From Patescibacteria group bacterium (GTDB taxonomy: Bacteria; Patescibacteriota; Patescibacteriia; Patescibacteriales; GWC2-42-12), in assembly GCA_041662965.1 (NCBI GenBank), contig JBAZRI010000002.1, forward strand, positions 46,062-110,061: a stretch of DNA of 64,000 nucleotides, in the 5' to 3' direction. This document shows positions 3,923 through 61,700 of the stretch, in pieces; the first letter of the stretch is position 1, and each line of letters begins with the position of its first letter. Below the pieces are notes generated by a model. It saw only the letters and a list, made by a program, of their open reading frames with translations. It was not told where the DNA came from and searched no databases. Position numbers and translations under genes: made by a program.

Positions 3923-5221
3923 TTAAATGTCATTTTGCTTGGCAATATTCCACTCTCTTAACTTCTCCACTACCTTTTTACCGGTCAAATTATTTTCTAC
4001 ATAATCATGATAAGCGTGGCTTTTAACCCGCTCAATTATGGTCTCATTGCCTTTATACTGCTTTAGAATATCGTCAATCGCTTTATGAATTTCTTCGTGG
4101 CTGACCGAAATTTTTTCCGCATTACCTATCTCTCTGATAACCAAAGATACCTTAACTCTTTTAACCGCGTCCGGCATTAATTCAAGCATTATCTGCTCGC
4201 GCGTTTTTTTTAAATGCATTAGATAATCTTCAAATTTCGCGCCCTGATTTTTAACGTTATATTCGAGCTCGGAAATCATAACCTCGGCTTCGTGCTTAAT
4301 CAGAGTCTCGGGAATATCGCCGAATTTTGAAGCGCCAATAATTTTATCGAGCATGGTAGCTTCGCTCTTCTGCTTTTCTTTCTGTTCTTTTTCCGCCAGC
4401 AGGCTTTTTTTAATATTATTTTTTAATTCTTCGACACTTTTTAGGCCAAAGCCTTTAGCCATGTCTTCGTTTACTTCCGGCAAAATCCGGTTATAAACTT
4501 CTTTAACAGTTACTTTAAATTCAGCCATTTTACCGGCTAAATTTTTATCATGATAATCGGCCGGATAAGGCAGGCTGAATTCTCTCGTGTCGCCTTTTTT
4601 CGCGCCAACTATTTTTTTATCAAAGCCGGGAATAATATAATTCTTACCGACAATTAAGCCGGCGCCTTTGCCCTGGCCGCCTTCAACCGGCACTTTATCT
4701 ATAAATATTCCGATATCCATAATCACCCGGTCGCCGTCCTTAATTTCTAATTCAGATATTACTTCGCTGGCGCGCATCTCGCGCAATTCGGAAATTAGCT
4801 TTTCCGCTTCTTCATCTTTTATTTCGGATTTAACCTCTTTAATCTTTAAATCTTTATAACTCCCGAGCTTAACTTCCGGCAGCATGGTTAAAACCATTTT
4901 ATATTCCATGGGATTGTCCGGCGCTAATTTAGTGATATTAACCTGCGGCTGGCCGACGATTTGGCCGGTAACGTTTTCTTTAATAACTTTATCCAAAGTT
5001 TTATCAATGGCGATGCGCGCGCCTTCTTCTAAAATCGTCATTTCGCCGATTTTATTTTTTAAAATTTCATAGGGCGCCTTGCCCGGGCGAAAGCCTTCAA
5101 TTTTCACATCAAGCGAAACTTTTTCCGCGCCGCGCAAAACATACGGCTTAAATTCTTCGGCCGTAAGTTCAACCGTCAATTCTATTTGCGATTTACCTAG
5201 GTCTTTTTTTCCTATTTTCAT
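3923..5221 (-). CDS. tig: trigger factor
   Basis: 432 aa; N-terminal ribosome-binding domain, FKBP-type PPIase segment (GFRPGKAP), C-terminal chaperone arm. Confidence 0.9.
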   Translation of the reverse strand: MKIGKKDLGKSQIELTVELTAEEFKPYVLRGAEKVSLDVKIEGFRPGKAPYEILKNKIGEMTILEEGARIAIDKTLDKVIKENVTGQIVGQPQVNITKLAPDNPMEYKMVLTMLPEVKLGSYKDLKIKEVKSEIKDEEAEKLISELREMRASEVISELEIKDGDRVIMDIGIFIDKVPVEGGQGKGAGLIVGKNYIIPGFDKKIVGAKKGDTREFSLPYPADYHDKNLAGKMAEFKVTVKEVYNRILPEVNEDMAKGFGLKSVEELKNNIKKSLLAEKEQKEKQKSEATMLDKIIGASKFGDIPETLIKHEAEVMISELEYNVKNQGAKFEDYLMHLKKTREQIMLELMPDAVKRVKVSLVIREIGNAEKISVSHEEIHKAIDDILKQYKGNETIIERVKSHAYHDYVENNLTGKKVVEKLREWNIAKQNDI

Positions 5222-5675: not shown

Positions 5676-5764
5676 CTTGCCCCACTATCAAGCTCTAAAT
5701 TATTTTATCATTAAGATAGAATAAGGCGGAGCTTCTTTTTTTATTATAAATAATAAAACTTTTC

Positions 5765-5912
5765 AAAATCACCCAGGGGGTTCGGGGAGTGGAGTTGGCG
5801 CCATTGCTTACAGTATGAAGATAAATCAACGTGATAGCCAATCGGAACTCCCCGAGACTTTTTGCTTACTTTTTAGTCATAAAAAGTAAGGCCTAGTGAA
5901 GCATCACGAATG
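5765..5912 (+). repeat. ~150-nt structured repeat family R1, copy A
   Basis: Colinear with 38919-39068 (+) and the reverse complement of 63298-63465. Shares 5' AAAATCACCC-GGGG, central AAGATAAATCA..ATAGC, and a hairpin cttactttttagtcataaaaagtaag. Confidence 0.7.
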
Positions 5913-5963
5913 TAAAATTAAAAAAAGTATACGACAATATTTAGATGTTTTACTAAAGAACCA

Positions 5964-6044
5964 GAGATTGCTTCGCTCACTCTGTTCGCTCGCAATGACA
6001 ATACGAATTCTGGATTCCCGCTTTCGCGGGAATGACAAATTTTA
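5964..6044 (-). repeat. TGTCATT-type palindromic repeats (GTCATTGCGAG...CGAAGCAATCT unit plus TGTCATTCCC-hairpin-GGAATCCAGAAT unit)
   Basis: Reverse-complement matches to units at 8184, 29942-30022, 35278, 36132, 43678 and 54781. Confidence 0.6.
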
Positions 6045-6045
6045 G

Positions 6046-6170
6046 TTGTTCGGCTGGGGAAAATTGTTTTTATCGCGCATACGAAATTGTAGCGTTTTTG
6101 AAAAATTTAATTTTTCAAAAACGCACAAATTTCATCCAAGCAGGAAAAATAATTTTCCCCAGCCGAGCTT
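6046..6170. repeat. long-hairpin repeat family R-C (GCGCATACGAAATTGTAG..CAAATTTC.TC.AAG core), copy 1
   Basis: Same architecture as 16838-16949 and 26970-27078. Outer inverted flanks gctcggctggggaaaatt / aattttccccagccgagc; inner arms covary (gtagcgttttt/aaaaacgcac versus gtagtattttt/aaaaataccc). Confidence 0.6.
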
Positions 6171-6178
6171 ATTTCAAA

Positions 6179-8170
6179 TTATATTAACAACCCTACAATC
6201 AATAACGCCACAATATTCAATATCTTTATCATTGGGTTAATCGCCGGACCAGCCGTATCTTTATAAGGATCGCCGACCGTATCGCCGGTTACGGCCGCTT
6301 TATGCGCCTCCGAACCCTTGCCGCCGAAATTCCCGTCTTCAATATATTTTTTGGCATTATCCCAGGCCCCGCCGCCCGAAGTCATGGAAATGGCCATAAA
6401 AATTCCCGTAACGATTGAACCGACCAGCAAGCCGCCTAAAGCTTCAACGCCTAAAATAAACCCGACTAAAATCGGCGCGGCCACCGGAATTAAAGCTGGC
6501 ACAATCATCTCGCCAATCGCGGCCTTAGTAACGATATCAACAGTCCGGCCATAATCAGGCTTTTCCGTGCCTAACATAATGCCCGGCTTTTCTCTGAATT
6601 GATTGCGCACTTCTTCTACTACCGAGCCGGCCGCCCGGCCCACGGCTTGCATGGCTAAAGCGCCGAAATAATATGGCAATAATCCGCCTAAAAATAAACC
6701 GGCTAAAACTTTCGGGTCATTAATTAAAAATTGATAGGTATCCGGAATACTATGAGTGAAATCAGCGAATAATACTAAAGCGGCTAAAGCGGCCGAACCG
6801 ATAGCATAGCCTTTGGTTACGGCCTTAGTCGTATTGCCGACCGCGTCTAGAGGATCGGTTACCGCGCGTACGTCGTCGCCCATCTCGGCCATCTCGGCAA
6901 TACCGCCGGCGTTATCAGTAATCGGGCCGTAAGAATCAATAGTGACGATTATCCCGGCCATGGATAACATAGCCATAACCGCGATCGCCACGCCATAAAG
7001 CCCGGCTAAACTGTAAGCGCTTAAAATAGCGGCTACAAGCACTATCATGGGCAATACCGTTGATTTCATAGAGACGGCTAGACCGGCAATAATATTCGTG
7101 CCATGTCCGGTCTTAGAAGCTTCGGCGATTGATTTTACCGGCGCGTAGCTTTTTGAAGTATAATATTCGGTAATTACCACCATGGCCGCGGTTACCGCCA
7201 AACCGACCAGCGAGGCTAAATATAAACTCATAACGCTGTAAGTTCCGTTGTCCGCCATCAGCCAATTGGTTATGGGATAAAAGGCCAGACCGGCTAAAAC
7301 TCCAGCCACGATCAAGCCTTTATATAAAGCGTTCATGATATTCTGGCTTCTGCCTAATTTTATAAAAAAACTGCCGATGATTGAAGTGATAATGGAAACC
7401 GCGCCGATAACCAAAGGATAAAGCACCGCATTATCAAAACCGACGAATAAAAGCGACCCTAAAATCATAGTAGCGATGCAAGTTACGACATAAGTTTCAA
7501 ATAAATCAGCCGCCATGCCGGCGCAGTCGCCCACGTTATCGCCCACGTTGTCGGCGATAACCGCCGGATTGCGCGGATCATCTTCCGGAATGCCAGCTTC
7601 AACTTTTCCGACTAAATCAGCGCCCACGTCCGCGGCTTTGGTAAAAATTCCGCCGCCGAGCCGAGCAAAAATAGAAATTAAAGATCCGCCAAAACCCAAG
7701 CCGATTAAAGCATGAGTGTCTTTGGTTACAAAATAAAAACCGGCTGTGCCGAGTAAAGCCAAGCCGACGACTAGCATGCCAGTAACATTACCGCCTTGAA
7801 CCGCTACGTTTAAAGCTTTGGCTAAACCGCTTCTGGCCGCTTCAGCCGTTCTAACGTTGGCGCGCACGGAAATATTCATGCCGATATAGCCGGTTAAAGC
7901 CGATAAAAAAGCGCCGAGTAAAAAAGCTAAGGCCATGGTCCAGCCCAATTTAGGAATAAAACCGATAATTAAAAAAATAACAACCGCGACCGCCGCGATA
8001 GTTTTATATTGGCGGTTTAAATACGCCTTGGCTCCGTCCTGGATGGCTTTAGCGATAAACTGCATTTTCTCATTGCCAGCCGGCAAACGCAAAACCAATT
8101 TAATTAAAATGGCTCCGTAGATGATGGCGAGCAAAGAGCTGCCGAGGATTAACAAAGTAACTAATGACAT
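6179..8170 (-). CDS. hppA: membrane-bound H+(or Na+)-translocating pyrophosphatase
   Basis: 663 aa, ~16 TM; motifs [52 protein letters not shown]. Confidence 0.95.
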
Positions 8171-12434: not shown

Positions 12435-12576
12435 AAATTATGATTTTTTATAATTAGCAATTTTAACAGCTTGCCGGTATCTAAAACTTGAAGGCGTTCT
12501 AAAGCCCGGATTGCCGCGTCGGCCGCCGACTTTTGCTCGCGCTTGTGATTTCATATTATTTTATATTGCTCTAACC

Positions 12577-12675
12577 GCTTGGGCTAAATTTGGAAAATTT
12601 TCGTGCGAGGACTGTTTGAGCCAGCCATGGGCTGACGAGTTCCGCAGTAGAAAATTTTATAAATTTAGCCCAAGC
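12577..12675. repeat. hairpin repeat family R-B (AAATTTTCGTGCGAGGACTGTTTGAGC...GAGTTCCGCAGTAGAAAATTT core), copy 1
   Basis: Core shared with 25381-25490, 40070-40164 and 44815-44910. Flanked by copy-specific inverted arms (cttgggctaaattt / aaatttagcccaag). Confidence 0.65.
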
Positions 12676-12700
12676 CTAGGCTGTTGTAAATATTATAATA

Positions 12701-16822: not shown

Positions 16823-16837
16823 AAAATAATATGATAA

Positions 16838-16949
16838 ATTTTGACGGATAGAATTTTTGATTTTGAGCGCATACGAAATTGTAGTATTTTTTTAAAAAAA
16901 TACCCAAATTTCGTCTAAGTGAAAAATCAAAAAATCTATCCGTCAAACC
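16838..16949. repeat. long-hairpin repeat family R-C, copy 2
   Basis: ttgacggatagaatttttgattttGAGCGCATACGAAATTGTAGTATTTTT...AAAAATACCCAAATTTCGTCTAAGTGaaaaatcaaaaaatctatccgtcaa; near-perfect 24-bp outer arms. Confidence 0.65.
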
Positions 16950-17026
16950 AAAAAAATATAGTAAACAAAAAAGGCGTTTACTACGCCATTAATGTTAATA
17001 TAACATATTATTTAAAAAAGTCTAGC

Positions 17027-21013: not shown

Positions 21014-21487
21014 TTATTTTACTTTCACATTTTTATTATGAACCAAATAATGGCAATTGCGACACAGCCAAACTAAATTATTAATCTTATAATTTTTTCT
21101 ATTACAATCTTTATGATGTATAATTAGAACTCTTTTATCATCCAAGCCGCATAATTTACATTTTATTGGGATTTTACTCTCTTTCATAACGCGATAATAA
21201 GTGAATTCACCGCCTTGCCAATTTGAATGAAGTTTGCCAATATAATATTTATTTCTCCAAATAGTCTGGCATTTCTTGCTGCAAAAAAACTTCCCGCTCT
21301 TTGAAATTTTCAATGCCTTTGGCGTTTTCCATGTTTCCTGACCGCAAATTTCACAAAGAACATACTTACCTTTTCTTTGCCCTAAATATTTGCATTTTCT
21401 CGAACAGTATTTACCATAACCCAGTTTTAAATGGCTTGGTTTAATATAAAATTCTTTTTTACAAATTTTACATTTTGCTATAGGCAT
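21014..21487 (-). CDS. HNH endonuclease with N-terminal Cys-rich zinc-finger repeats
   Basis: C-terminal HHKDCNRKNYKINNLVWLCRNCHYLVH (HNH motif); five CxxC pairs upstream. Lies 11 bp from tRNA-His. Confidence 0.7.
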   Translation of the reverse strand: MPIAKCKICKKEFYIKPSHLKLGYGKYCSRKCKYLGQRKGKYVLCEICGQETWKTPKALKISKSGKFFCSKKCQTIWRNKYYIGKLHSNWQGGEFTYYRVMKESKIPIKCKLCGLDDKRVLIIHHKDCNRKNYKINNLVWLCRNCHYLVHNKNVKVK

Positions 21488-21550
21488 ATACCATTAATAA
21501 TATCAAAATTAACTCGCAATGTCAATGTACTGTCTTGTGGATTAAACTTA

Positions 21551-21580
21551 TGTCCTACCATTGTACTATAGCCAGCCACC
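21551..21580 (-). pseudogene. tRNA-like 5' fragment (acceptor plus D-arm only)
   Basis: GGTGGCTGGCTATAGTACAATGGTAGGAC resembles the 5' 30 nt of tRNA-Gly(GCC) at 2869 (TATAGTACAATGGT.AG.AC), but no anticodon or T arm follows. Confidence 0.3.
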
Positions 21581-21652
21581 ATGGTTTTTTTAAATAAAAG
21601 TTGCCTTGCGGCAACTTTTATAATATAACAGAATTTGCTAAAAAGTCAATGA

Positions 21653-22174
21653 TTACACCATCGCCGTTACTTTCTTTTCTTTATATAATAACGCCAAGCT
21701 AAACTCACAGGCGCCGACTAAAGCTCCGGTATAAAATAAATCGCCGAGCAGGCTGTTCCTAAAAAAAGGAACGGCCATATAATAACTTTGTAGCAATCCG
21801 GCCGCGGTCTGCGGATAAAGAGAGCCGAACGCCCAGACCGCTCCGTTTGTCATTAAATAAAATATCACACTGCCTAAAATCGTACCGCCTAAAACCGTGC
21901 TTAATTTTTTGTTCCGCCTGACTAATAGGCCGATTAAACCCATAACCGTGAAACTTGAATAAACCGACAGCATAATCGGCCAGCCGTAAAAACCGATGAA
22001 CAAATCGCTGAAAAACATGGCGGCTAAAGGCAGAATAAGCGCCCATTTCTTCGGAAGATATAATCCGGAAAAAATCGCGATTGCCCCGATTGGCGCGAAA
22101 TTAGCCGGGTGGGGTAAAAACCTGGCCGCGATGCCTAAAATAATTAAAACTAACGCTGGCAGATACTTTTTCAT
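21653..22174 (-). CDS. polytopic membrane protein, possibly ECF-transporter S-component-like
   Basis: 173 aa, 5-6 TM, no soluble domain; last gene of a three-gene minus-strand unit with DUF4430 proteins. Confidence 0.35.
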   Translation of the reverse strand: MKKYLPALVLIILGIAARFLPHPANFAPIGAIAIFSGLYLPKKWALILPLAAMFFSDLFIGFYGWPIMLSVYSSFTVMGLIGLLVRRNKKLSTVLGGTILGSVIFYLMTNGAVWAFGSLYPQTAAGLLQSYYMAVPFFRNSLLGDLFYTGALVGACEFSLALLYKEKKVTAMV

Positions 22175-22195
22175 AAAATTATATTTATAATTTAA

Positions 22196-24301
22196 TTATA
22201 GCAGAAGCAACAGCAATTTCAACCCTAAAAAAATTCCGGCGATAATAGCGCCTGCGCCGGCAACATATAATGCTTTTTTAGCCACGGCATTAATTTTTTC
22301 TTTAGCTGTTACTTTAACGATAACGCCATTATTTTGAGCCTGAGCCTGAATTACATTATTAATCGTAGTTGACGCGGTTTTATTTTCTGCCATCTCCTGG
22401 CCTGATTTCTTACTAGCTATATTATTCACGACAACAGTCGGCTTTAGCGAGGTTATTTTCGCGGACAGCACTTTCGGCGTAACTTGCTTTACCGGCTTAA
22501 CGGCAACGCTTATGGTTTTAACCGTTTCTGACCTGGCCTTTTCTTCGTTAGCTTCAGCCTGAAGCAAACTTTCCGTACTGCTGGCTGTAATTAAATCTTT
22601 AGGCGATGAGGTGGCTATATCTAACTTTTCTAAAGTTGAGGTGGCGATTTCATTTTCAACTACGTCAATATTATCAGCCGGCACTTCAGTCAGGCTCGGC
22701 GCGGCCAGTTTGGAAAAATTTTGCATAATATTAAGCCACGGCTTACCCTGCGCCGCCGGTATGGCGTAAGCGGTTGACCAGAGGCGATTAGCCTCATAGG
22801 CGTTTTCTTTTTCTAAACCGCCGTCAGCGCCCTGGCTTAAAGCTAAATAGCTTTCCGGCGTATTATTATTTTTTTGCCAGGCATCGCTAGATTCGCCTAA
22901 AGCCGCTAGAGCCTGCATAGCCCAAGCCGTGGCATAAGTGCTGCCAAAACCGCCGTCGGCGCCCTGGGCGTTCAATAAAAAATTTCTGGCTTTTTGCAAA
23001 GCCGGCGCAACGCCGCTTAAAGATGGCGCGGAGGCCAGAGCTTGTATGGCGGCGGCCGTTAAATCAGAACTGCCCCAGGAACCGTCGGCTTGCTGTTTAG
23101 CTATTATGAAATCCGCTGTTTTTTTTATTACTTCCTCGTCAGCCGCGTAACCGGCTTTGCTTAAAACCAACAGCGCGAAAATATCGTCATTATATAATGA
23201 AGCGTCGCCGAACTGCTGGCCGTCAAACAAATCAATTATTTTATTTATATAATTTGTTTTTACGCCGTTATAGGGATTGATATTTAAAGACATTAAAGCC
23301 ATGGCGCGGCGCGAATAATCCGACGCTAAATTCATGCCGGCTAACGGATCAGGGTCGGCCAATAAATAATTTTTAATTTTTTGCGCGGCCGAACCATTGG
23401 AGTTGGCCGAGGCTAGAGCTATAGCCGCCCAATCGGATTGCAAAACAGCGCCGAAAGAGCCGTCAGAGCCTTGTTTAGCGATTAAAAAATCTATGGCCTT
23501 GCCTAAATCAACCTTTAAAGGCGGAACAACCGCGGAACCGCCGCCGGACGCAGGCGGTAAAATTATGCCGCCGCCGCTTGGCTGGTCTTGATCTTGGCTA
23601 TTATTTTCTTCCTGTCTTGCCTGCGCCGTAATAGTAACTTCAGCGCTGTTAATATAACCGCTTTTTTTGCCATAAATTAAAATCGGCGCTGTCGTGGTAG
23701 CCGTATATTCATAAATTCCGCTTACATTTTCCAGCTCCTCGCCGCCGATCATTAAAGCGCTGGAAGCGGCTAAAGACCAAGCCGGATTCCAGCTGGCGTC
23801 TAAGCCAAACTGCTCCACCGTTATGGTAGAAGTGGCATTAACATAAGGCGAAGCATTATCCGTAGAAATTTTTAACGGATTGATATTATAGGTTAACAAT
23901 AATTCTTCGCCGTTAGCCAGCATGTGTTTGTTCAGCGCCGTTAAGCCATATTCCAAGTCACTAAACCAAGCCCAATAGACTCCGTTGCCCGCGTCATTAT
24001 TTACATAACCGCCAAGGGAATTTAAAAATATATCGTCGCCCCACCAGCCAAAGTCGCTTATTATCCCTGATTGCTCAACCGCGCACTTGGCATTAACCGA
24101 AGTAGTGCTGGCGCTAACGCTGTCGGCGCAAGCGATTACATCAATGCTTTGGTCATACAGGCTGGCGTCGTTGGTTTTTATTTGCAGCCTGATAGTCGTC
24201 GTGGCCGTATCGGCTTTAGCTATGTCAGTAAAAAACCAAAATGCTAACGCAAACGTAAAAATAAAATAACAAATTTTAAAAAGATTTTTCTTCATACTCA
24301 T
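22196..24301 (-). CDS. secreted, C-terminally membrane-anchored protein with DUF4430-like N-terminal domain and prenyltransferase/terpene-cyclase-like alpha-alpha repeats
   Basis: Signal peptide. DUF4430-like segment (GGYVNNDAGNGVYWAWF...GEELLLTY). Four or more repeats (AKQGSDGSFG, AKQQADGSWG, NAQGADGGFGSTYATAWAMQAL, QGADGGL). C-terminal TM LLLLL. Confidence 0.55.
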   Translation of the reverse strand: MSMKKNLFKICYFIFTFALAFWFFTDIAKADTATTTIRLQIKTNDASLYDQSIDVIACADSVSASTTSVNAKCAVEQSGIISDFGWWGDDIFLNSLGGYVNNDAGNGVYWAWFSDLEYGLTALNKHMLANGEELLLTYNINPLKISTDNASPYVNATSTITVEQFGLDASWNPAWSLAASSALMIGGEELENVSGIYEYTATTTAPILIYGKKSGYINSAEVTITAQARQEENNSQDQDQPSGGGIILPPASGGGSAVVPPLKVDLGKAIDFLIAKQGSDGSFGAVLQSDWAAIALASANSNGSAAQKIKNYLLADPDPLAGMNLASDYSRRAMALMSLNINPYNGVKTNYINKIIDLFDGQQFGDASLYNDDIFALLVLSKAGYAADEEVIKKTADFIIAKQQADGSWGSSDLTAAAIQALASAPSLSGVAPALQKARNFLLNAQGADGGFGSTYATAWAMQALAALGESSDAWQKNNNTPESYLALSQGADGGLEKENAYEANRLWSTAYAIPAAQGKPWLNIMQNFSKLAAPSLTEVPADNIDVVENEIATSTLEKLDIATSSPKDLITASSTESLLQAEANEEKARSETVKTISVAVKPVKQVTPKVLSAKITSLKPTVVVNNIASKKSGQEMAENKTASTTINNVIQAQAQNNGVIVKVTAKEKINAVAKKALYVAGAGAIIAGIFLGLKLLLLLL

Positions 24302-25181: not shown

Positions 25182-25380
25182 TCGATTTAGACTAAAATTT
25201 AATTAAACAAATATCTCTTACGCAAGCGTTTACTCTAGCCTGCTTGTCCCCGGAGCATAAGCGCAGGGGGAACTATGGGAGCATAAAATAACCATAAAAT
25301 AAAATTGCCAATTTTCAGCAATACCAAAATACTACCGATTTAAACATGATTTGTCAAAACAATAATTGATAATTATTATT

Positions 25381-25490
25381 GTTTACGATTTATTTATGAA
25401 ATTTTCGTGCGAGGACTGTTTGAGCCCCACGGCAGCGGGGCGAGTTCCGCAGTAGAAAATTTCATAAATAAATCGTAAACATTCATGCGG
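25381..25490. repeat. hairpin repeat family R-B, copy 2
   Basis: gtttacgatttatttatgAAATTTTCGTGCGAGGACTGTTTGAGC..GAGTTCCGCAGTAGAAAATTTcataaataaatcgtaaac. Confidence 0.65.
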
Positions 25491-25495
25491 CAATA

Positions 25496-26419
25496 TCATT
25501 TCCTATGTCTTCCGTGAAACGCTTTATGCACGTCGCGCAACTGCTGATCGGTAATATGGGTATAAACTTGCGTGGTGGTAATGGAGGCATGGCCGAGCAT
25601 AGCCTGCACGCTCCTGATATCCGCGCCATTCATTAAAAGATCAGTAGCATAGCTATGGCGCATAGTATGCGGCGTCACTTCCTTGGTAATGCCGGCGATT
25701 TTTGAATATTTCTGCACTAAGCGCTGAACACTGCGAGGGGTCAGGCCATCTTGCGTATCACGACCAGAAGCCGCTTTATCATGGCTCGTAAATAAATAGG
25801 GGTTCGTATCTAATCGGGATTTTAAATATTCCTCAATCGCCCGCTTGGCATCATCGGATAAAAACACCACGCGTAATTTAGAACCTTTGCCGCGCACCGT
25901 AAACTCGTCTTTTTTTAAATTAATGTTCTCAATTTTTAATTTGCATAACTCGGAAACTCTAAGGCCGGTGGAAAAAAATAATTCCAGAATAGCCTTGTCG
26001 CGCTTTTTAATAATTTCCGGCGATTCAATCTTAAACGGCGCTTCTAAAATCCTCACTAAATCCGCGCCTTCTAAAAAATCAACTTGCCTTTGCTCCTGCT
26101 TGGCCAATTCCACTTTCTCCGGCTCCAGCGATTTTATGTCGTTTTTAACCAAATACTTTAAAAAACCGCGCAAAGCGATTAAATGATAATTTTGCGTATT
26201 TTTTTTCAATCCCTCGTTTTTAGCATTGTTCAGGCGATTTAGCCATAACCTGTATTTATGTACTAATTCTTTGCTAATTTTAACGGCATTAACCACGCCA
26301 GATTCTTTAGCAAAACCGGCAAATCTTTTCAAATAAAACGCATAATTACTAACCGTGATGCGCGATAAGCCTTTTTCCACCTCTAAATATTCCAAAAAAT
26401 TATTTATTACCTTATCCAT
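25496..26419 (-). CDS. xerC: tyrosine site-specific recombinase XerC/XerD family
   Basis: C-terminal catalytic box [38 protein letters not shown]; RVSE...R upstream. Confidence 0.85.
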
Positions 26420-26552: not shown

Positions 26553-26966
26553 ATGTTAGACAAAAAAGCCAAGCAAAAAATCATCAACAAGTTTAAGATC
26601 CATGACACCGATACCGGATCTTCGCAGGTGCAAATCGCCATTTTAACCGAAGAAATCAAGCAATTGACCGAACACTTGAAAAAGCACAAGCATGACCATT
26701 CTTCAAGACGCGGCCTTCTAAAAAAAGTCGGCGAGCGCAGGCGCCTGTTGAAATATCTGCAAAAAGAAGATAAAGAAGCTTTTGACGAACTGGCTAAGGC
26801 CTTAAAATTAAGAATCGCCAAAAAGATGATTGAAGACGAAGAAGTCAGGCAAAAAATTGAGGATGAAATTTTAGCCAAGCAAGAATTAAAAGCCGAGCAG
26901 GCCGAAGAAGCGGAAAATGAGCGAGCCGAAGCCGAAGACCATAAAAATAAAGAAGACGAAGAATAA
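26553..26966 (+). CDS. rpsO: 30S ribosomal protein S15 with ~50-aa acidic C-terminal extension
   Basis: Start at ATG 26553; [59 protein letters not shown]; tail E/K/A-rich. Confidence 0.85.
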
Positions 26967-26969
26967 AAA

Positions 26970-27078
26970 GCGCCGGATAAAAATTTTGGTTTTGAGCGCA
27001 TACGAAATTGTAGTATTTTTCTTGAAAAAAAATACCCAAATTTCGTCTAAGTGAAAAACCAAAATTTTTATCCGGCAA
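26970..27078. repeat. long-hairpin repeat family R-C, copy 3 (between rpsO and the NYN gene)
   Basis: cgccggataaaaattttggttttGAGCGCATACGAAATTGTAGTATTTTT...CCCAAATTTCGTCTAAGTGaaaaaccaaaatttttatccggca. Confidence 0.65.
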
Positions 27079-27090
27079 AAATAACTATTT

Positions 27091-31699: not shown

Positions 31700-33190
<1,491 letters not shown>

Positions 33191-33440
33191 AGGGAGATTT
33201 TTTGGTGAACAATCAAAAGAGTCGAAGAGTTAGCGCCTGTTAGTGTTGAAAATCACGTAGCTCATAACTCGTAACTCACAACTCAAATAATTTATTAATT
33301 GAGTTACGGGTTATGGGTTACGAGTTGCGAGAAAATAAACAAATAGTTTTATGGGCCTATTTGTCCCCCTTCGCTTAAGCTACGGAGGATAAATCATAAA
33401 AAGACTGGTCCTAAACTATTTAGAAGCAGTTTTTTTATTG

Positions 33441-33514
33441 GGGCAACTAGCTCAGTTGGTTAGAGCGCGACACTGATAATGTCGAGGTCGGAGGTTCAAC
33501 TCCTCCGTTGCCCA
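33441..33514 (+). tRNA. tRNA-Ile(GAT)
   Basis: GGGCAACTAGCTCAGTTGGTTAGAGCGCGACACTGATAATGTCGAGGTCGGAGGTTCAACTCCTCCGTTGCCCA. Confidence 0.85.
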
Positions 33515-33555
33515 CCCTCCTTCGCTGAAGCTACGGAGGACAAGCCATTAGAGGA

Positions 33556-33798
33556 TTGTCTATGTATTATATTTATATTTTATTTTGCTCAGACGAAACC
33601 TATTATGTTGGATTAACTGAGAATATTAAAAAAAGAATAATACAACATAAAAACAGTTTAGTTGATTATACAAAATATAGATTACTAATTAAAGTTATTT
33701 GGATTGGAATATTTAAAAATAAAAAGATTGCCGCAAACTTTGAAAAATATCTAAAAACCGGATCTGGTAATGCATTCTTTAAAAAAAGATTAGTTTAA
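33556..33798 (+). CDS. small GIY-YIG nuclease-family protein (YhbQ/UPF0213-like)
   Basis: YYIYILFCSDETYYVGLTENIKKRIIQH (GIY..YIG..R..H); extremely AT-rich codons; inserted between tRNA-Ile and a tRNA cluster. Confidence 0.6.
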   Translation: MSMYYIYILFCSDETYYVGLTENIKKRIIQHKNSLVDYTKYRLLIKVIWIGIFKNKKIAANFEKYLKTGSGNAFFKKRLV

Positions 33799-33836
33799 TT
33801 CGCTAAGCTTGCGATACGAAGCTTTAGCGTAGTATC

Positions 33837-33907
33837 GCGGGGTAGAGCAGTTGGCAGCTCGCCAGGCCCATAACCTGGAGGTCGTGGGTTCAAATCCCAC
33901 CCCCGCA
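33837..33907 (+). tRNA. tRNA-Met(CAT) (elongator or Ile2 type; not initiator-like)
   Basis: GCGGGGTAGAGCAGTTGGCAGCTCGCCAGGCCCATAACCTGGAGGTCGTGGGTTCAAATCCCACCCCCGCA. Confidence 0.75.
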
Positions 33908-33925
33908 ACATAGAAAGTTAATTGA

Positions 33926-33997
33926 GCCTCGGTAGCTCAGTGGTAGAGCAAATGACTGAAAATCATTGTGTCGTCAGTTCGATTCTGACCCGGGGCA
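33926..33997 (+). tRNA. tRNA-Phe(GAA)
   Basis: GCCTCGGTAGCTCAGTGGTAGAGCAAATGACTGAAAATCATTGTGTCGTCAGTTCGATTCTGACCCGGGGCA. Confidence 0.85.
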
Positions 33998-34016
33998 CTA
34001 GAAACAATAATTGAAC

Positions 34017-34088
34017 TCGGGCTGTCGTATACCGGTAGTACGCATGCTTTGGGAGCATGTCGACTGGGTTCAATTCCCAGCAGCCCGA
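34017..34088 (+). tRNA. tRNA-Pro(TGG)
   Basis: CGGGCTGTCGTATACCGGTAGTACGCATGCTTTGGGAGCATGTCGACTGGGTTCAATTCCCAGCAGCCCGA. Confidence 0.75.
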
Positions 34089-34172
34089 CCCTCTTTCGCT
34101 AAAGCTTCAGAGGGCAAGCCGCAACAATAAGCGGGCTTGCCCGCCGTAGCTTTTGCGGTAGCAAAAGCGTAG

Positions 34173-34247
34173 GCGGGTATCGTATAGTGGCTTTTATGCT
34201 AGCCTTCCAAGCTGGAGAGACGGGTTCGATTCCCGTTACCCGCTCCA
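34173..34247 (+). tRNA. tRNA-Gly(TCC), CCA encoded
   Basis: GCGGGTATCGTATAGTGGC...GCTAGCCTTCCAAGCTGGAG...GGGTTCGATTCCCGTTACCCGCTCCA. Confidence 0.75.
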
Positions 34248-35262: not shown

Positions 35263-35277
35263 TTATAATAAAAGTAT

Positions 35278-35327
35278 TGTCATTGCGAGAAGCCTGTAAT
35301 CAGGCGACGAAGCAATCTCACGAATTA
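35278..35327 (+). repeat. TGTCATTGCGAG...CGACGAAGCAATCTCACGAAT unit
   Basis: tgtcattgcgagaagcctgtaatcaggcgacgaagcaatctcacgaatt. Confidence 0.6.
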
Positions 35328-36065: not shown

Positions 36066-36243
36066 CAAATTTATCCGCCTCTGGCGGAGGGGGCAGGGGG
36101 GATTTTACTTTTGTCATTCCCACTACTTTTTTGTCATTGCGGGCTTGATCCGGGATCCATTTCCTTTTCACCTGTCATTGAGAGAAGCCCGTACTCGGGC
36201 GACCTGCCGGCCGGCAGGCAGGCGAAGCAATCTCACGAATAAC
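36066..36243 (+). repeat. compound TGTCATT-type repeat cluster
   Basis: ccgcctctggcgg hairpin; tgtcattcccactac; tgtcattgcgggcttgatccgggatcc; tgtcattgagagaagcccgtactcgggcgacc..gcgaagcaatctcacgaataac. Confidence 0.55.
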
Positions 36244-36337
36244 TATTAACAAGTAAAGCTAATTAACTGCGAATATTCTTCTTACCTCAAAAAGACTAAA
36301 ATATTCTTCTTATATTTTACCTAATTTTAGCCATAAA

Positions 36338-38848: not shown

Positions 38849-38876
38849 TAAACTAATAGTTTACAATCTATAACAT

Positions 38877-38907
38877 AAAACACGGTCTTGACCGTGTTTT
38901 ATATTTT
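38877..38907 (+). terminator. rho-independent terminator after pilin gene
   Basis: aaaacacggtc-ttga-ccgtgtttt + atatttt. Confidence 0.6.
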
Positions 38908-38918
38908 CAAAATTTATC

Positions 38919-39068
38919 AAAATCACCCCGGGGTTTGGGGTGACGAATAAGCGCCAAGGCGTGAGCATCAAAAGATAAATCAACGTGATAGCGCATTGAG
39001 GCACCCCAAAACTTCTTTGGTTACTTTCTTAGTTATAAGAAAGTAACCCCTAGCGGAGCGTCACGAAC
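38919..39068 (+). repeat. ~150-nt structured repeat family R1, copy B
   Basis: aaaatcaccccggggtttggggtga...aagataaatcaacgtgatagc...ggttactttcttagttataagaaagtaacc...cgtcacgaacag; compensatory changes relative to copy A in both hairpins. Confidence 0.7.
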
Positions 39069-39149
39069 AGATTAATTTAGGAAAGGTAAGCTACAATGTT
39101 CAAACAAGTATCAAATAAATAGATAACACCACATTAATATAACTAACCC

Positions 39150-39185
39150 CTGGATCCCGGATCAAGCCCGGGATGACAAAACAAA
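39150..39185 (-). repeat. TGTCATCCCGGGCTTGATCCGGGATCCAGGG unit (reverse orientation)
   Basis: Reverse complement resembles 36143 tgtcattgcgggcttgatccgggatcc. Confidence 0.5.
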
Positions 39186-39190
39186 AAAAT

Positions 39191-40054: not shown

Positions 40055-40069
40055 ATATTTTAGTTGATG

Positions 40070-40164
40070 GGGCTAAATTTTATTAAATTTTTGAACGAGG
40101 ACTGTCTGAGCTCGAGTACTCTCGGGCGAAGTTACGAGAGGAGAAAATTTAATAAATTTAGCCA
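40070..40164. repeat. hairpin repeat family R-B, copy 3 (divergent core)
   Basis: ggctaaattttattaaaTTTTTGAACGAGGACTGTCTGAGCtcgagtactctcgggcGAAGTTACGAGAGGAGAAAATTTaataaatttagcc. Confidence 0.55.
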
Positions 40165-40195
40165 CATCTCTCATGCGATTTATAATTTAAATGGA

Positions 40196-41227: not shown

Positions 41228-41647
41228 CTAAGCTCCGGTAGTCGCTCCGACGATTTGATTTATGACGAAATTAGTCAGCGCGTAAGCCGATAAAATAATA
41301 ATTAGGCCGATCACGCCGTTAATCAGCATTTTTTTAGCCTCGGAGACGTTTTCTTCGTTGCCTCCAGCCGTCATCCATTTAAAACCCGCATATAAAACTA
41401 TGATAACGGCGATGATGCCGAGAAAGCCTAAAATAAATTTAATAATATCGGCCGCAACCTGGCGCGGATCGCGGTCAGCTGCCTCGCCCAAACCTGAATT
41501 ATCTCTAGTATAAGTTTTTAAATCATTGCCTCCCCAATAATCATCTGAACTCACGGCTAAGGATTGCGAGGCTGGAGCCAAAACTAAAATGGCCAACGAG
41601 AAAATCATCGCCGCCGTAATGACTTTCTTAAAAAAAATTTGTTTCAT
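41228..41647 (-). CDS. VirB2/TrbC-like T4SS pilin family protein (paralog 2)
   Basis: ...ILGFLGIIAVIIVLYAGFKWMTAGGNEENVSEAKKMLINGVIGLIIILSAYAL. Confidence 0.7.
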   Translation of the reverse strand: MKQIFFKKVITAAMIFSLAILVLAPASQSLAVSSDDYWGGNDLKTYTRDNSGLGEAADRDPRQVAADIIKFILGFLGIIAVIIVLYAGFKWMTAGGNEENVSEAKKMLINGVIGLIIILSAYALTNFVINQIVGATTGA

Positions 41648-41756
41648 AATTTTATTTACCCCGTTAAATCCGCCCTGCGGAAATTCGCTAAAAGCGAATT
41701 TATTTAACAGGGTGAATAAATTAATTTGTTAACTTAAAGTGCTCCGGGCATAAAAG

Positions 41757-42215
41757 CTACTGCCAAATCACCGGTGTATCGGTAGTCGCTCCGACTATAT
41801 AGCTTATAATAAAAGTAGCTAAGGCATAAGCCGATAAAATAATAACTAAGCCGATCACCGCGTTAATCAGCATTTTTTTAGCCGTAGCGACGTTTTCTTC
41901 GTTGCCTCCGGCAGTCATCCATTTAAAGCCGGCGTATAAAATTATCACCACTGTTATTATTCCTAAAAACCCCAAAACAATTTTAATTATATCCACAATT
42001 GTCATTCTGATATCTCTAGGCGTGCTCCCGTCATAAGCTTGGCCAACCTGATTAAGCCCGCCGTCGTTAACCCTCTGCCACCAATCACCTTCAGCCTTGA
42101 CTTGATTAATAGCGCTAAAATCGGCCGTAACCGGGGCTAGAGCTAAAAACATAGACAAAAATACAGCGCTTAGGCTATACTTAATAATTGATTTAAATTT
42201 TTTAGTCATAAACAT
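41757..42215 (-). CDS. VirB2/TrbC-like T4SS pilin family protein (paralog 3)
   Basis: ...VLGFLGIITVVIILYAGFKWMTAGGNEENVATAKKMLINAVIGLVIILSAYAL. Confidence 0.7.
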   Translation of the reverse strand: MFMTKKFKSIIKYSLSAVFLSMFLALAPVTADFSAINQVKAEGDWWQRVNDGGLNQVGQAYDGSTPRDIRMTIVDIIKIVLGFLGIITVVIILYAGFKWMTAGGNEENVATAKKMLINAVIGLVIILSAYALATFIISYIVGATTDTPVIWQ

Positions 42216-43772: not shown

Positions 43773-44804
43773 ATGACCAAAATTCTCCTGATTAATTCAT
43801 CGGCTGAAAAAAATTTATTGCTGATTCGCGCCTGTAAAGAACTGGAGCAAAAAAACTTTTCCTTGGCTTTTCTGTCTTCAAAAAAACCCCTGCTCGGGCA
43901 ATTTAAATTCCTGTTTTTATTAACCGGCTTTAGGCTTAAGCGAAAAGTTGACATAGTCGCCTGCCTTAATTTCAATGAGAAAATTGTTATTACCCCGTTG
44001 GCCCGCTTGTTTGGCTTAAAAGTTATATGGCTTGAAGGGCCGGAAGCAGACTACCGGCAATTTAATAAATTTTTATTGGCATTATATAAATTAAATTTCC
44101 GGCTGGCGAAAACCATTGCTTTTAATAATTATTCTAAACTAAAATTAAAAAATATCGGCTGCGATGAAAATAAAATAAGCCTGATAACTCCGGGCGCCAA
44201 GCTTTCTCCCTACCAAGAAAATATTTTTAATAAGCTGGCTAGCGCCGGCCGGGTGAATTTCCACCGCAAATATTTTACGGTCGGCCTCGTAACCGCTTTA
44301 AACCAAAAACAAAAAATTGAAACGATTTTCCAGGCCATAAAAACCAGCTTGCCGGTAATCCCCAATATCCAGCTGATTATAATCGGCGAGGGCGAAGAAA
44401 GGAAGAATCTCTCATGGCTCGCAAAAAAAATGGAAATTGATAATCTAGTCTGGCTGGTCGGCGAACAGGAACAGCTGAAAAAATGGCTTGACAGTTTTGA
44501 TGTTTTTTTGGCTTTGGGAGAAAAATTATCGCTTGATGATTATGGCAATATTCTAGAAGCCATGGCCGCCGGCCTGCCGGTTCTAGCTCCGCGCAATATC
44601 GGTCTGGAAGACTTAATTATGGAAAATAATACCGGCGCGCTGATTGAATCCAATAACAGCGAGATGCTGGCGCGGCAAATTATTAAATTACATCAAGACA
44701 AGCGTTTACGCCTGTTTTTAGGCAAAAACGGCCGAGAACGCGCCAGCCGATCATTCACTTTGGAAATAATGGTTGAAAAATTAGCAGTCATATTAAAAAA
44801 TTAA
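43773..44804 (+). CDS. glycosyltransferase family 1 (GT4-like)
   Basis: C-terminal GT-B motif ...LALGEKLSLDDYGNILEAMAAGLPVLAPRNIGLEDLI... Confidence 0.7.
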   Translation: MTKILLINSSAEKNLLLIRACKELEQKNFSLAFLSSKKPLLGQFKFLFLLTGFRLKRKVDIVACLNFNEKIVITPLARLFGLKVIWLEGPEADYRQFNKFLLALYKLNFRLAKTIAFNNYSKLKLKNIGCDENKISLITPGAKLSPYQENIFNKLASAGRVNFHRKYFTVGLVTALNQKQKIETIFQAIKTSLPVIPNIQLIIIGEGEERKNLSWLAKKMEIDNLVWLVGEQEQLKKWLDSFDVFLALGEKLSLDDYGNILEAMAAGLPVLAPRNIGLEDLIMENNTGALIESNNSEMLARQIIKLHQDKRLRLFLGKNGRERASRSFTLEIMVEKLAVILKN

Positions 44805-44814
44805 CTATTTTTGT

Positions 44815-44910
44815 TCAGGCTAAATTTACTAAATTTTCGTGCGAGGACTGTTTGAGCGAGCGTTAGCGAGCGAGTTCCGCAGTAGAAAATTTTGTGAATT
44901 TAGCCTGAAC
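44815..44910. repeat. hairpin repeat family R-B, copy 4
   Basis: gttcaggctaaatttactAAATTTTCGTGCGAGGACTGTTTGAGCgagcgttagcgagcGAGTTCCGCAGTAGAAAATTTtgtgaatttagcctgaac. Confidence 0.65.
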
Positions 44911-44929
44911 TTTCATGTCATAAAATAGC

Positions 44930-51669: not shown

Positions 51670-52119
51670 TTACTCGCCTGTATTATTTACTGGATTTGAA
51701 GGTGCCCCGCCTCCACCGCCTCCCCCATCCGGCAAACTGCTAAACACGAAATAAGTTATGGAGTAAGCCGCGGTAATAATAATTAAGCCGATAACCGCGC
51801 GCGTTAAAGTATTTTTTGCCAGCGTTACCTTTTCTTCGTCGCCTTGCGCCGTCATCCAGTTATAGCCGGCATAAATTATCAAAACTAGAAAAATTATGCC
51901 TAATAAGCCTAAAAAAGCGCTAATCGCAATTCTAATCATTTGCGGCATAGTATTTACCGTAGCCTCTTCGCCGCCCCAACCTTTAGTACCTGCTTTATCC
52001 AACTGATCAAAAAGTTCTACTCCTGCCCTGGCCTGGCAGGACTGAATACTAAACAAACTATTTATCAAAAAAATAACAGATAAAACGCTAAAAATAAATT
52101 TAATATATTTTTTGGCCAT
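51670..52119 (-). CDS. VirB2/TrbC-like T4SS pilin family protein (paralog 4; array member 1) with Gly-rich C-tail
   Basis: ...FLGLLGIIFLVLIIYAGYNWMTAQGDEEKVTLAKNTLTRAVIGLIIITAAYSI...GGGGGGG. Confidence 0.7.
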   Translation of the reverse strand: MAKKYIKFIFSVLSVIFLINSLFSIQSCQARAGVELFDQLDKAGTKGWGGEEATVNTMPQMIRIAISAFLGLLGIIFLVLIIYAGYNWMTAQGDEEKVTLAKNTLTRAVIGLIIITAAYSITYFVFSSLPDGGGGGGGAPSNPVNNTGE

Positions 52120-52124
52120 ATTTA

Positions 52125-52511
52125 TTATAATATCCTGGCTGTAAATATTAGCTTAACTAGTACCCATGTGCTAATCGCATAGGCGGCAATAGTTATAATC
52201 AAACCGATAACCGCGCGCTGAAGCGTATCTTTAGCTTTATTAACCTTTTCCTCTTCGCCCTGCGCTGTCATCCAGTTAAAACCGGCATAAATTATCAAAA
52301 CTAAAAATATAACGCCTAATAAGCCTAAAAAAGCCTGAATAACTATGCCAACGATTTCCGCCAGCTTATATTGATCGGCAGCCGCATATGGCGCGGTGCC
52401 GCCTTCTTCTCCAACCTTTTTTAAACTATTATAAGCATCGCTAGAAGCTAGAACAAACGACGGAAAAATCAGCATCAGTAAAAATATTAAAATTACTATT
52501 TTTTTTGCCAT
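52125..52511 (-). CDS. VirB2/TrbC-like T4SS pilin family protein (paralog 5; array member 2)
   Basis: ...FLGLLGVIFLVLIIYAGFNWMTAQGEEEKVNKAKDTLQRAVIGLIITIAAYAI. Confidence 0.7.
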   Translation of the reverse strand: MAKKIVILIFLLMLIFPSFVLASSDAYNSLKKVGEEGGTAPYAAADQYKLAEIVGIVIQAFLGLLGVIFLVLIIYAGFNWMTAQGEEEKVNKAKDTLQRAVIGLIITIAAYAISTWVLVKLIFTARIL

Positions 52512-52539
52512 AAAATTAATTTTAGTTTATCTGCGATTT

Positions 52540-52992: not shown

Positions 52993-53008
52993 AATTAATC
53001 CAATTAAA

Positions 53009-53383: not shown

Positions 53384-53464
53384 TATATTTATATTTCAAC
53401 TAATTACTCAATAAATATTTTTATAATACCAGCGTCCTGAAAATTTTCTAAAATAATTCGTGTG

Positions 53465-54327: not shown

Positions 54328-54383
54328 ATTTTTAAAATAACACTCATAAAATTTTATAATTTCTAACGGGTTTCATAAAGATA

Positions 54384-61398: not shown

Positions 61399-61700
61399 AG
61401 CGCGAGGGGGTTACGATTTATTTAAAATAAAAATATCTAATAGTAATATAAAATTGATAAAATAATTAGCGAGTTCATTTCAATAGCCATTATAACAGCT
61501 TAATTATAAATGTAAAATAGACTTTAATGTTTACAAACTGTTAATAAATAGTGGAAAAGATTATATTAGCTTTTTATTTTTAAAAAAGCGTAATAATATT
61601 TTTTAGTTTGACTTTAAAAAGGTTAAATGTTATGTTTTATTTGAGATAAAGCCGTATATTTATCTCTTTAAATTTTTATTAATAATATTTGTTTATATTT

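Follow-up and report, generated by a model that had tools for sequence, protein, structure and literature searches.

What is the structured repeat that recurs three times in a 64,000-nt stretch of the Patescibacteria contig JBAZRI010000002.1 (positions 46,062 to 110,061, hereafter the window)? The original prediction, made by reading the letters alone, had described three colinear copies of an approximately 150-nt element, here called R1, and had proposed that it is under selection for a single-strand structure and may be like MITEs (miniature transposable elements with inverted repeats) or a small-RNA element. We find that R1 belongs to a family of at least 28 copies, 150-170 nt in length, in Falkowbacteria-like Patescibacteria, and that it is an undescribed non-coding structured repeat seen only in a small Falkowbacteria-related clade. 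That selection preserves its single-strand fold is well supported by the comparison of copies. As for its nature, we tentatively read R1 as a non-coding, non-autonomous mobile structured repeat, one module of a REP-like intergenic mosaic, and we grant this reading slightly less than an even chance. The element merits attention in any case: it is well-supported in structure, is without a match in Rfam, and is conserved above its neighbouring genes and yet gained, lost and swapped.

A family of folded repeats

The three copies are seen both by direct reading and in alignments, where they are mutually 69-78% identical; copies 1 and 3 represent subtype A of the family and copy 2 subtype B (Table 1). 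A 21-nt exact core, AAGATAAATCAnCnnGATAGC, occurs three times in the window where 0.09 occurrences would be expected, and a covariance model built from 13 relatives and run over the whole 64 kb with filters off recovered the same three loci, at 163, 146 and 113-121 bits, with no further significant match. Two additional candidates, at 21463-21591 (19 bits) and 22097-22219 (17 bits), were rejected for their marginal scores and poor pairing. The first of them, on the reverse strand, lies mostly within a 165-nt gap between two open reading frames (ORFs). AAGUUUAAUCCACAAGACAG and CAUUGCGAG occur in it, and it may represent what is left of a decayed R1 or REP unit, or noise. Copy 3 is longer than the others because a 20-nt palindrome is nested inside it. 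Direct reading of the sequences revealed no ORF conserved between the subtypes. In particular, subtype B has a 29-codon ORF on its opposite strand that in subtype A is interrupted by indels and without a start codon, and the mini-ORFs in the linker downstream of R1 are not conserved either.

How widely is R1 distributed? When one genome per prokaryotic species was scanned for the exact motif, 36 matches resulted, six of them true homologues, all on contigs labelled as Patescibacteria or Falkowbacteria or labelled uninformatively, one contig carrying the label Gammaproteobacteria. The same type of scan over metagenomes gave 108 stretches, about 22 of which hold true R1, and none of the seven motif matches on viral contigs proved to be R1. 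Altogether, 28 distinct copies were aligned, including one, L152, that was added through its gene neighbourhood. A scan of the whole window against Rfam 15 at the gathering threshold gave no R1 match, and for copies 1 and 2 at E <= 10 the only matches were chance-level ones to unrelated small RNAs, over the flanking terminator. The literature searches made, which included queries with sequence strings, yielded no description of R1 or of interspersed structured repeats in genomes of the Candidate Phyla Radiation (CPR). These genomes are tiny and are usually regarded as poor in repeats and regulators.

The fold is best judged from the 28-copy model-based alignment, which is fitted to the structure and whose figures therefore lean towards it: standard pairs fill 92.8% of cells, as against 81.2% after shuffling and 39-54% with the partners slid, and double changes occur in 20 of 33 pairs, a number reached by none of 500 shuffles. 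Covariation exceeds the shuffled and slid controls in three helices, P1, P3 and P4. P1 is a long-range helix in which a GGGG-nnn strand covaries with a downstream nnn-CCCC strand, the combinations including AGT/ACT, GTT/AAC, TG/CA, GTCT/AGAC, GCC/GGC and GTGT/ACAC; within copy 1, it contains a 100% complementary inverted repeat (5782-5790/5847-5855). What is more, P1 covaries also in a structure-blind MAFFT alignment, where 2 copies have A-T, 13 T-A and 9 G-C at columns 54/138, and 15 have G-C and 9 T-A at columns 55/137. P3, with 11-13 bp, is the best-supported helix, with double changes in 10 of its 11 pairs, 99% of cells paired across the 28 copies, and stems that are entirely re-coded in the relatives L063 and L105. 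P4 comprises 2-3 bp around a conserved CUAGC loop. It is closed by CG (14 copies), UA (6) or GC (5), and a C/G indel within it is paired. For the remaining helix, P2, the support is moderate: it is Watson-Crick in subtype A and in L105, and its pair 32/79 covaries in L063, whereas subtype B has two fixed mismatches; overall, 76% of its cells are paired.

P2 is capped by a near-invariant strand, AAGATAAATCA-N4-GATAGC, whose invariance in our sample is partly built in, as most homologues were collected by an exact match to the core; the two copies collected without the motif (L078:11326 and L152) differ from it at two to three positions. The 5-by-5 internal loop that separates P1 from P2 may accommodate tandem G.A pairs. 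Put together, the preserved structure is a rod built from P1, P2 and the G.A-rich internal loop between them, showing the near-invariant 21-nt strand at its apex and followed by the hairpin P3, the mini-hairpin P4 and a short tail common to REP-like units. The support is weak for one further interaction and absent for another: the core loop CGUGA and the tail UCACG, if joined as a pseudoknot, are 81.9% paired, as compared with 80.0% after shuffling, the covariation score being reached by 7 of 500 shuffles, and a pairing of the 5' ATCAC with the core GTGAT has nothing in its favour beyond sequence conservation.

Measured against this fold, the original prediction had correctly identified the compensatory changes in the 3' hairpin, which is P3, and the conserved segment between the helices, and had erred in one of its two helices. 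Namely, the proposed 5' hairpin (tcaccc..ggggag) does not covary, and its 3' arm pairs instead with the downstream strand to form P1. The same hairpin, considered as an opposite-strand terminator (TCACCC/GGGTGA), is perfect only in subtype B, and in the other subtypes the upstream CACCC shows no covariation with the G-run extension. The claim of selection on single-strand structure, as opposed to a decaying duplicate, is nevertheless well supported by the covariation of P1, P3 and P4. It is further backed by conservation: at the site between a ROK kinase gene and a pilin gene, the orthologous subtype B copies of the window and of its relative L015 are 88.9% identical, as against 75.2% nucleotide identity for the ROK genes and 36% for the adjacent linker.

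Which strand, then, carries the function? Wobble pairs favour the strand on which R1 was originally read (hereafter the reading strand), with 72 G.U against 23 A.C overall and 8 against 3 in the firm helices. That said, both strands fold stably, the complement at -55.5 kcal/mol (z = -5.6), and the margin in the firm helices is no more than 8 to 3; the acting molecule could be RNA or single-stranded DNA, of either strand.

Gain, loss and turnover within a repeat mosaic

R1 is a discrete unit that is gained and lost as a block, and its subtypes have been swapped at one orthologous site. The cleanest comparison is provided by the site between yidC and the DAGK kinase gene, where R1 is present in the window (identically in L167) and in L166, and is cleanly missing from L163, L164 and L165, the YidC proteins of which are 92-93% identical. 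At the empty sites, nothing but the shared terminator and 5-10 nt precedes the DAGK stop codon. The filled site has an extra block of 233 nt, with the DAGK stop codon (63510-63512) on one side of it and the bidirectional terminator common to all (approximately 63232-63267) on the other, and in this block R1 is accompanied by a fragment of a second repeat, R2. The filled junctions read TTTTAA/AAAATC... and ...AAAAGT/ACACCATAT, and the empty site TTTTAA/ACAACATAT; at this one site, no target duplication of 2 nt or more is visible. Nor were conserved terminal inverted repeats found in the family, as the ends AAAATCACC... and ...CACGAAT are not inverted repeats of each other; only weak AT-rich inverted matches, differing from copy to copy, flank copies 1 and 3.

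Turnover of a different kind is seen at the ROK-pilin site. As described above, the window and L015 share a well-conserved subtype B copy there. L152, with a closer ROK gene (82.6% identical), has instead a subtype A copy that is only 67% identical to that of the window, and in L153 the body of R1 is replaced by R2, the tail, linker and REP-like hairpin being kept. L155 and L159 carry a 23S_rRNA_IVP gene in place of R1, and L157 a toxin-antitoxin pair. Within about 20 kb examined in each of the relatives with a 61-86% identical ROK, no full copy of R1 was found; L153 retains just a tail remnant. The small selfish modules of this region also include HicAB-like genes (from ORF reading), MNT/HEPN genes and 23S_rRNA_IVP/bAvd genes with GTAACnCATAAC-type flanking repeats, and to judge from its contents the ROK-pilin intergenic region has the appearance of a hot spot for integration. 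Copies that are 91-95% identical to those of the window are found on other contigs, at loci that are not orthologous.

R1 is moreover one module of a mosaic with at least four other small repeat families, in which insertions are nested. Downstream of the 150-nt body, most copies have a semi-conserved linker of about 100 nt, after which come one or two GC-rich, REP-like hairpins with fixed flanks, either CTGGATTCCsGC...GCsGGAATGACAAA or GAGATTGCTTCGC...GCTCGCAATGACAA; the arrangement downstream of copy 1 recurs after most family members. Such hairpins also stand alone about ten times in the window, their stems varying between copies and their arms staying complementary, and they have no consistent orientation relative to the replication origin. 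One such unit, at 35277-35327, is followed by a TATAAT about 25 nt before the trmD start codon. The final 18 nt or so of R1 (CGAAGC..CACGAAT) are common to the REP-like units at 35277-35327 and 36170-36245, the tail motif of the P4 region matching at 35308-35327 and 36223-36242, just as had been noticed initially for the TGTCATTGCGAG repeat unit.

A second component is the palindrome nested in copy 3, CCTGCCTGCCGGCAGGCAGG, which is perfect and occurs at three different positions in different R1 copies, as well as in the REP-like unit at 36201-36220. It behaves like a tiny insertion element in its own right; in copy 3, a T-rich run comes after it on the R1 strand, and there it scores as terminator-like. 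A third component is R2, a repeat measuring about 190 nt. Its inverted-repeat arms have about 38 bp each, and a GC hairpin and YCYGAGCGGAGCGG come next to it. In L018, L074 and L122, R2 adjoins R1 in head-to-head fashion at the 5' end of the latter, as does its fragment at copy 3. One of the R2-like elements of the window lies directly 3' of a gene for a XerC/D-like tyrosine recombinase (25496-26419). Finally, a copy of another, palindromic repeat family sits just past the REP-like hairpins that follow copy 1.

The suggestion of a MITE-like or small-RNA element related to the REP-like family is thus borne out as regards gain and loss as a block, the REP-like hairpins downstream and the shared terminal 18 nt or so. 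R1 is not, in turn, a classical MITE: it is small, non-coding, multi-copy and polymorphic for presence and absence, as MITEs are, but no conserved terminal inverted repeats were found and, at the one site available, no target-site duplication.

What kind of element R1 might be

A discrete non-coding unit, with a selected fold and with gain, loss and exchange at the 3' ends of genes in a biased orientation, is most naturally read as a non-autonomous mobile repeat. This reading, which as stated we hold tentatively, starts from what is directly observed, namely the copies, their fold, the insertion/deletion polymorphism, the turnover of subtypes at one site, the orientation bias, the lack of coding capacity and, among the neighbours tested, the lack of a recognizable transposase or nuclease next to R1. 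R1 would be gained, lost and swapped as a block in the DNA near gene 3' ends and terminators. In the mechanism that we find most likely, a trans-encoded enzyme would recognize the folded single strand and propagate it, the substrate being either DNA exposed at the replication fork or an R1 transcript; the logic would be that of REP/RAYT systems and of IS200/IS605 ends. The copies are probably also transcribed, either from a -10-like box at their 5' boundary or by read-through.

The orientation bias can be stated in numbers, using our own ORF calls around 26 copies. The gene on the 3' side of R1 is convergent with it in 22 of the 26 (19 of 22 after collapsing orthologous loci), the gene on the 5' side is co-oriented in 15 and opposite in 11, and not a single one of the 26 copies lies in a divergent promoter region. 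In the window, orientation can also be compared with replication. Cumulative GC skew has its minimum at approximately 61400-61900, next to dnaA (60052-61398, reverse strand) and to rpmH/rnpA/yidD/yidC (forward strand), and a replication origin at about 61-62 kb, beside dnaA, is likely. Copies 1 and 2, on the forward strand, lie to the left of it and copy 3, on the reverse strand, to the right, so that all three read 5' to 3' towards the origin. However, because 63% of the coding bases of the left replichore are on the leading strand, the directions of replication and transcription are confounded. The orientation flips with the replichore in the three copies, transcription being a confounding factor, and the strand favoured by wobble pairs is the unexpected one.

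Several observations weigh against mobility. In the part of the genome inspected, that is, the 64 kb of the window and about 9 kb beyond its end (L167), no candidate mobilizing enzyme was found, and the only recombinase seen, that at 25496-26419, looks like an ordinary XerC/D-type protein. Pfam searches of eight flanking ORFs, from the most divergent loci and the window, detected no transposase, nuclease or reverse-transcriptase domain, returning TPR, PBP2, TPP-enzyme and CSD domains or nothing; the search for a protein partner next door, extended to 20 further ORFs of the window, gave ordinary genes apart from that one recombinase, and no Y1/HUH domain occurs among the 24 window ORFs scanned with Pfam, further genes being covered by precomputed Pfam annotations for L167, which is identical to the window, and for syntenic loci of relatives such as L152. 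The L015 orthologue of copy 2 is conserved above the flanking coding gene (88.9% vs. 75.2%) and almost all R1 copies are intact, so that a host-level RNA function fits at least as well as selfish spread. The fold of R1 is also more elaborate than any known transposon-end hairpin. The wobble-favoured strand has the lagging-strand sequence in the window and is opposite to the one expected from the rule for IS200/IS605 top strands. Finally, there is a single clean empty-site comparison, and the block inserted there includes a fragment of another repeat. If R1 is nevertheless mobile DNA, it points to an undescribed mobilizing enzyme of these bacteria, acting on single-stranded or RNA substrates.

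In comparison with known systems, R1 is closest in kind to REP/REPIN, ERIC-type and IS200/IS605-derived elements, and has the defining features of none of them. Like REP, BIME and REPIN sequences with their RAYTs (IS200/IS605-like Y1 transposases), it is a short, non-coding, multi-copy intergenic repeat kept for its single-strand hairpins, without convincing terminal inverted repeats, located at gene 3' ends and forming mosaics with other repeats; it is even physically joined to REP-like GC-rich hairpins, with which it has its last 18 nt or so in common. Unlike a REP, which is a palindrome of 20-40 nt, it has 150-170 nt, four helices and an invariant unpaired strand, and no RAYT gene, as known from REP systems, was seen in the inspected part of the genome. 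REPs are described with GTAG or CGTC tags (PMC3733652), whereas the hairpins adjoining R1 are palindromic and carry TGTCAT / AATGACA. With ERIC/IRU, RUP, Correia and the Neisseria NIME/dRS3 elements, R1 shares the format of interspersed 100-170 nt repeats in transcribed intergenic DNA, compensatory changes, presence or absence varying between relatives, and a mosaic organization. The REP-like hairpins (ATTCCCGC..GCGGGAAT) resemble dRS3 even in sequence, one string match in the literature included. Those elements, however, are essentially a single long, imperfect palindrome that often has terminal inverted repeats and a TA target, while R1 does not form a palindrome over its whole length, and neither terminal inverted repeats nor a target duplication were found for it.

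The ends of IS200/IS605 elements, the PATEs and the TnpB omega-RNA resemble R1 in having no terminal inverted repeats or target duplication and a structured subterminal region; an orientation bias consistent with replication may be common to R1 and these elements, and the omega-RNA is likewise a structured RNA of about 150 nt at a transposon end. R1 differs from them in that no tnpA or tnpB domain occurs in the flanking ORFs tested and none is apparent beside the other copies, in that Rfam has no match to it, in that the folded strand, as judged by wobble pairs, appears opposite to the IS608 rule, and in that no conserved target tetranucleotide could be established. Integron attC sites are similarly structured, single-strand recombination-type repeats that can follow small ORFs. 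R1, by contrast, has no R''/R' core sites (GTTRRRY), no single bulged hairpin and no one-directional cassette array; its copies are dispersed on both strands with no adjacent integrase gene, and about half follow a co-oriented ORF. An attC-like cassette of an orphan ORF plus R1 was rejected, the upstream gene being co-oriented in only 15 of 26 copies and the supposed orphan at copy 3 being a kinase. A riboswitch or 5' leader was also rejected: just 4 of 26 copies have a co-oriented gene downstream, and from copy to copy the genes downstream are unrelated.

Could R1 instead be a family of stand-alone small-RNA genes with their own -10-like promoter element? We regard this as the main rival reading, possible though rather unlikely. 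Transcription would begin near the base of P1 on the reading strand, the invariant 21-nt strand would bind a protein or nucleic-acid target, and the RNA would end where the convergent neighbour has its bidirectional terminator, so that the orientation bias would be accounted for. Indeed, conservation in 25 copies begins at about -10, some 10 nt upstream of the start of the copy, with a 5' box that lies outside every covarying helix and contains a -10-like hexamer, nAAAAT, in 23 of the 25, so that this box may act as a promoter. The wobble pairs favour the reading strand, the sequence is conserved above neighbouring coding genes, a strong bidirectional terminator is commonly found downstream, the downstream neighbour is convergent in 22 of 26 copies, and covarying helices around a conserved unpaired strand are typical of functional RNAs; multi-copy trans-acting RNAs of the Qrr type, in particular, also have paralogous copies and covarying helices around a possible seed segment. 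On the other hand, a promoter scan found no conserved -35 and no consistent consensus promoter at R1, -10-like hexamers are common in AT-rich DNA, and no intrinsic terminator was found inside R1, so that it has none of its own. In several copies, the distance between their start and a stop codon, terminator or divergent start codon is 8-40 nt, which leaves little room for a promoter, and every copy would be set head-on to replication. Gain and loss among close relatives and swaps of subtypes, in a setting of mosaic repeats, are unusual for resident small-RNA genes and unlike the Qrr type. No enriched and well-placed complementary target was found in the window: the complement of AAGATAAATCA with at most one mismatch has 9 non-self matches, as against about 3.3 expected, none of them compelling. 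If R1 were an RNA gene after all, it would be a lineage-specific multi-copy RNA with an invariant 21-nt functional strand.

Alternatively, R1 could be a cis-acting RNA module in a 3' untranslated region or between cistrons, co-transcribed with its neighbour and serving as an mRNA stabilizer, a processing site or an insulator, roles that have been suggested for ERIC and REP elements. Function would then reside in the complement of the reading strand, co-oriented with the gene whose 3' end R1 abuts. We consider this unlikely. In 22 of 26 copies, the complement does follow a co-oriented gene; where the two neighbouring genes are co-directional, it coincides with the sense strand in 11 cases and with the other in 3; in copy 2 it lies between the ROK stop codon and the shared terminator, it folds stably as given above, and R1 never occupies a divergent promoter region. 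Against this, copy 3 is reversed, its reading strand being inside the DAGK transcription unit and its complement beyond the yidC terminator; wobble pairs disfavour the complement, a stabilizer or insulator does not need a near-invariant unpaired strand of 21 nt, and close relatives do without R1 at the same genes.

It is more improbable still that R1 serves an RNA-dependent mobile system as its guide or scaffold, for instance as a molecule similar to an omega-RNA or a bridge RNA, or as a self-cleaving ribozyme, the protein partner being encoded elsewhere in the genome. Its 150-170 nt, its multi-helix scaffold with conserved unpaired nucleotides, its lack of convincing inverted repeats or target duplication, and a sharp conserved 3' end followed by variable sequence are all in keeping with such a system. 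Yet R1 matches nothing in Rfam 15 at the gathering threshold or at E <= 10, and Rfam includes families of the omega-RNA type and small ribozymes. No TnpB, IscB, IS110-type or reverse-transcriptase domain was detected in the scanned flanking ORFs and none is apparent among the other neighbours, and no loop sequence matching the ends or a target site was found. A bolder version, in which R1 is the RNA part (guide, bridge, scaffold or new ribozyme) of a mobility system special to these ultra-small bacteria, is a long shot; R1 would there be a protein-less miniature element served in trans, with the invariant 21-nt strand as its catalytic or recognition centre.

Lastly, the notion that the copies are neutral duplication remnants, their structure a matter of chance or a by-product of palindromic DNA, can draw on the richness of the genome in palindromic repeats and on the many covarying columns that merely separate two subtypes, but it is very improbable, being effectively refuted by covariation and conservation: 20 of 33 pairs are double-changed, several independent pair types occur per position, the P3 stems of L063 and L105 are fully re-coded, and R1 is conserved above its coding neighbours. 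Whether R1 is the mobile repeat that we favour or an RNA gene, its covariance model offers a concrete handle, as it can be run across CPR genomes and tested against existing groundwater metatranscriptomes.

Coordinates and neighbouring features

The features discussed above are collected in Table 1.

Table 1. R1 copies, their parts and associated repeats. Positions are those of the window unless a relative is named.
Feature	Position	Strand	Basis or remark
Conserved 5' boundary box, copy 1 (consensus AAAAyATTTnAAAATCACC)	5755-5773	+	position counts, 25 copies
R1 copy 1, subtype A	5765-5913	+	covariance model 163 bits, E 4e-47; exact core; alignments
P1 5' strand, copy 1	5778-5790	+	pairs with 5847-5860; covarying pairs 24/108, 25/107, 26/106, 19/113
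P1 3' strand, copy 1	5847-5860	+	covariation; inverted repeat
P2 5' strand, copy 1	5795-5799 (TTGGC)	+	pairs with GCCAA 5837-5841
Near-invariant apical strand AAGATAAATCAACGTGATAGC, copy 1	5818-5838	+	last two bases within P2
P3 hairpin, copy 1 (CTTACTTTTTA / TAAAAAGTAAG)	5865-5890	+	inverted repeat and family covariation
P4 mini-hairpin (N-C-[CUAGC]-G-N') and tail AGCRUCACGAAU, copy 1	5891-5911	+
Linker and REP-like hairpins after copy 1	linker 5914-5963; hairpins 5964-6001, 6010-6039	+	both hairpins ending AATGACAA
R1 copy 2, subtype B	38919-39070	+	covariance model 146 bits; orthologous copies in L015, L152
Parts of copy 2	P1 38934-38942/39002-39010; core 38972-38992; P3 39019-39048	+
Linker and REP-like hairpin after copy 2	39071-39181	+	hairpin 39150-39181 (CTGGATCCCGG..CCCGGGATGACAA)
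R1 copy 3, subtype A	63295-63463	-	covariance model 113-121 bits; exact core
Parts of copy 3	core 63390-63410; P1 63373-63381/63438-63446; P3 63318-63343	-
20-nt palindrome CCTGCCTGCCGGCAGGCAGG nested in copy 3	63348-63367		between P1 and P3
Further CCTGCCTGCCGGCAGGCAGG palindrome sites	L048 9706-9723; L105 1238-1255; also L061, L078
Extra block, 233 nt (46-nt R2 fragment, R1, 18 nt)	63277-63509	-	in window and L166, not in L163, L164, L165
ROK-pilin small selfish modules (window equivalent 38849-39190)	L015 3062-3527; L155 10833-11186; L157 10947-11671; L159 10881-11252
REP-like hairpins	5964-6039, 8184, 29980, 35277-35327, 36112-36245, 39150-39181, 43676, 54784		flanks TGTCATTCCCGC..GCGGGAATCCAG or TGTCATTGCGAG..CGAAGCAATCTCACGAAT
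R2 loci	L074 ~4665-4855 (-); L018 ~7215-7420; L122; L153 10811-11226 (-); fragment, window 63464-63509
R2-like inverted-repeat elements, four	12566-12682, 25370-25487, 40056-40175, 44802-44917	same orientation	carry R2 central motif ACTGTTTGAGC...GCGAGTT
Third repeat family, palindromic, ~130 nt (GGATAGAATTTTTGATTTTGAGCGCATACGAAATTGTAG...)	6040-6170, 16834-16956, 26963-27088

The genes next to R1 were said at first to be orphan or codon-atypical in all three cases, which is only partly right. Copy 2 comes after a T4SS-pilin gene, the ORF at 63510 encodes the C-terminal portion of a DAGK_cat kinase, and the flanking genes of the 28 copies of the family are unrelated housekeeping genes or small ORFs.

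A few other features of the window may be mentioned. Diverged tandem arrays of T4SS-pilin genes (PF18895), at 41228-42215 and 51670-54776, form direct-repeat families of 150-210 nt with a spacing of about 400-550 nt. A 16S rRNA gene is followed by a tRNA cluster (31700-34244), with no 23S gene in the window, and three repeats of about 43 nt (33365, 33516 and 34090; CCyCCTTCGCTnAAGCTnCGGAGG) lie among the tRNA genes.

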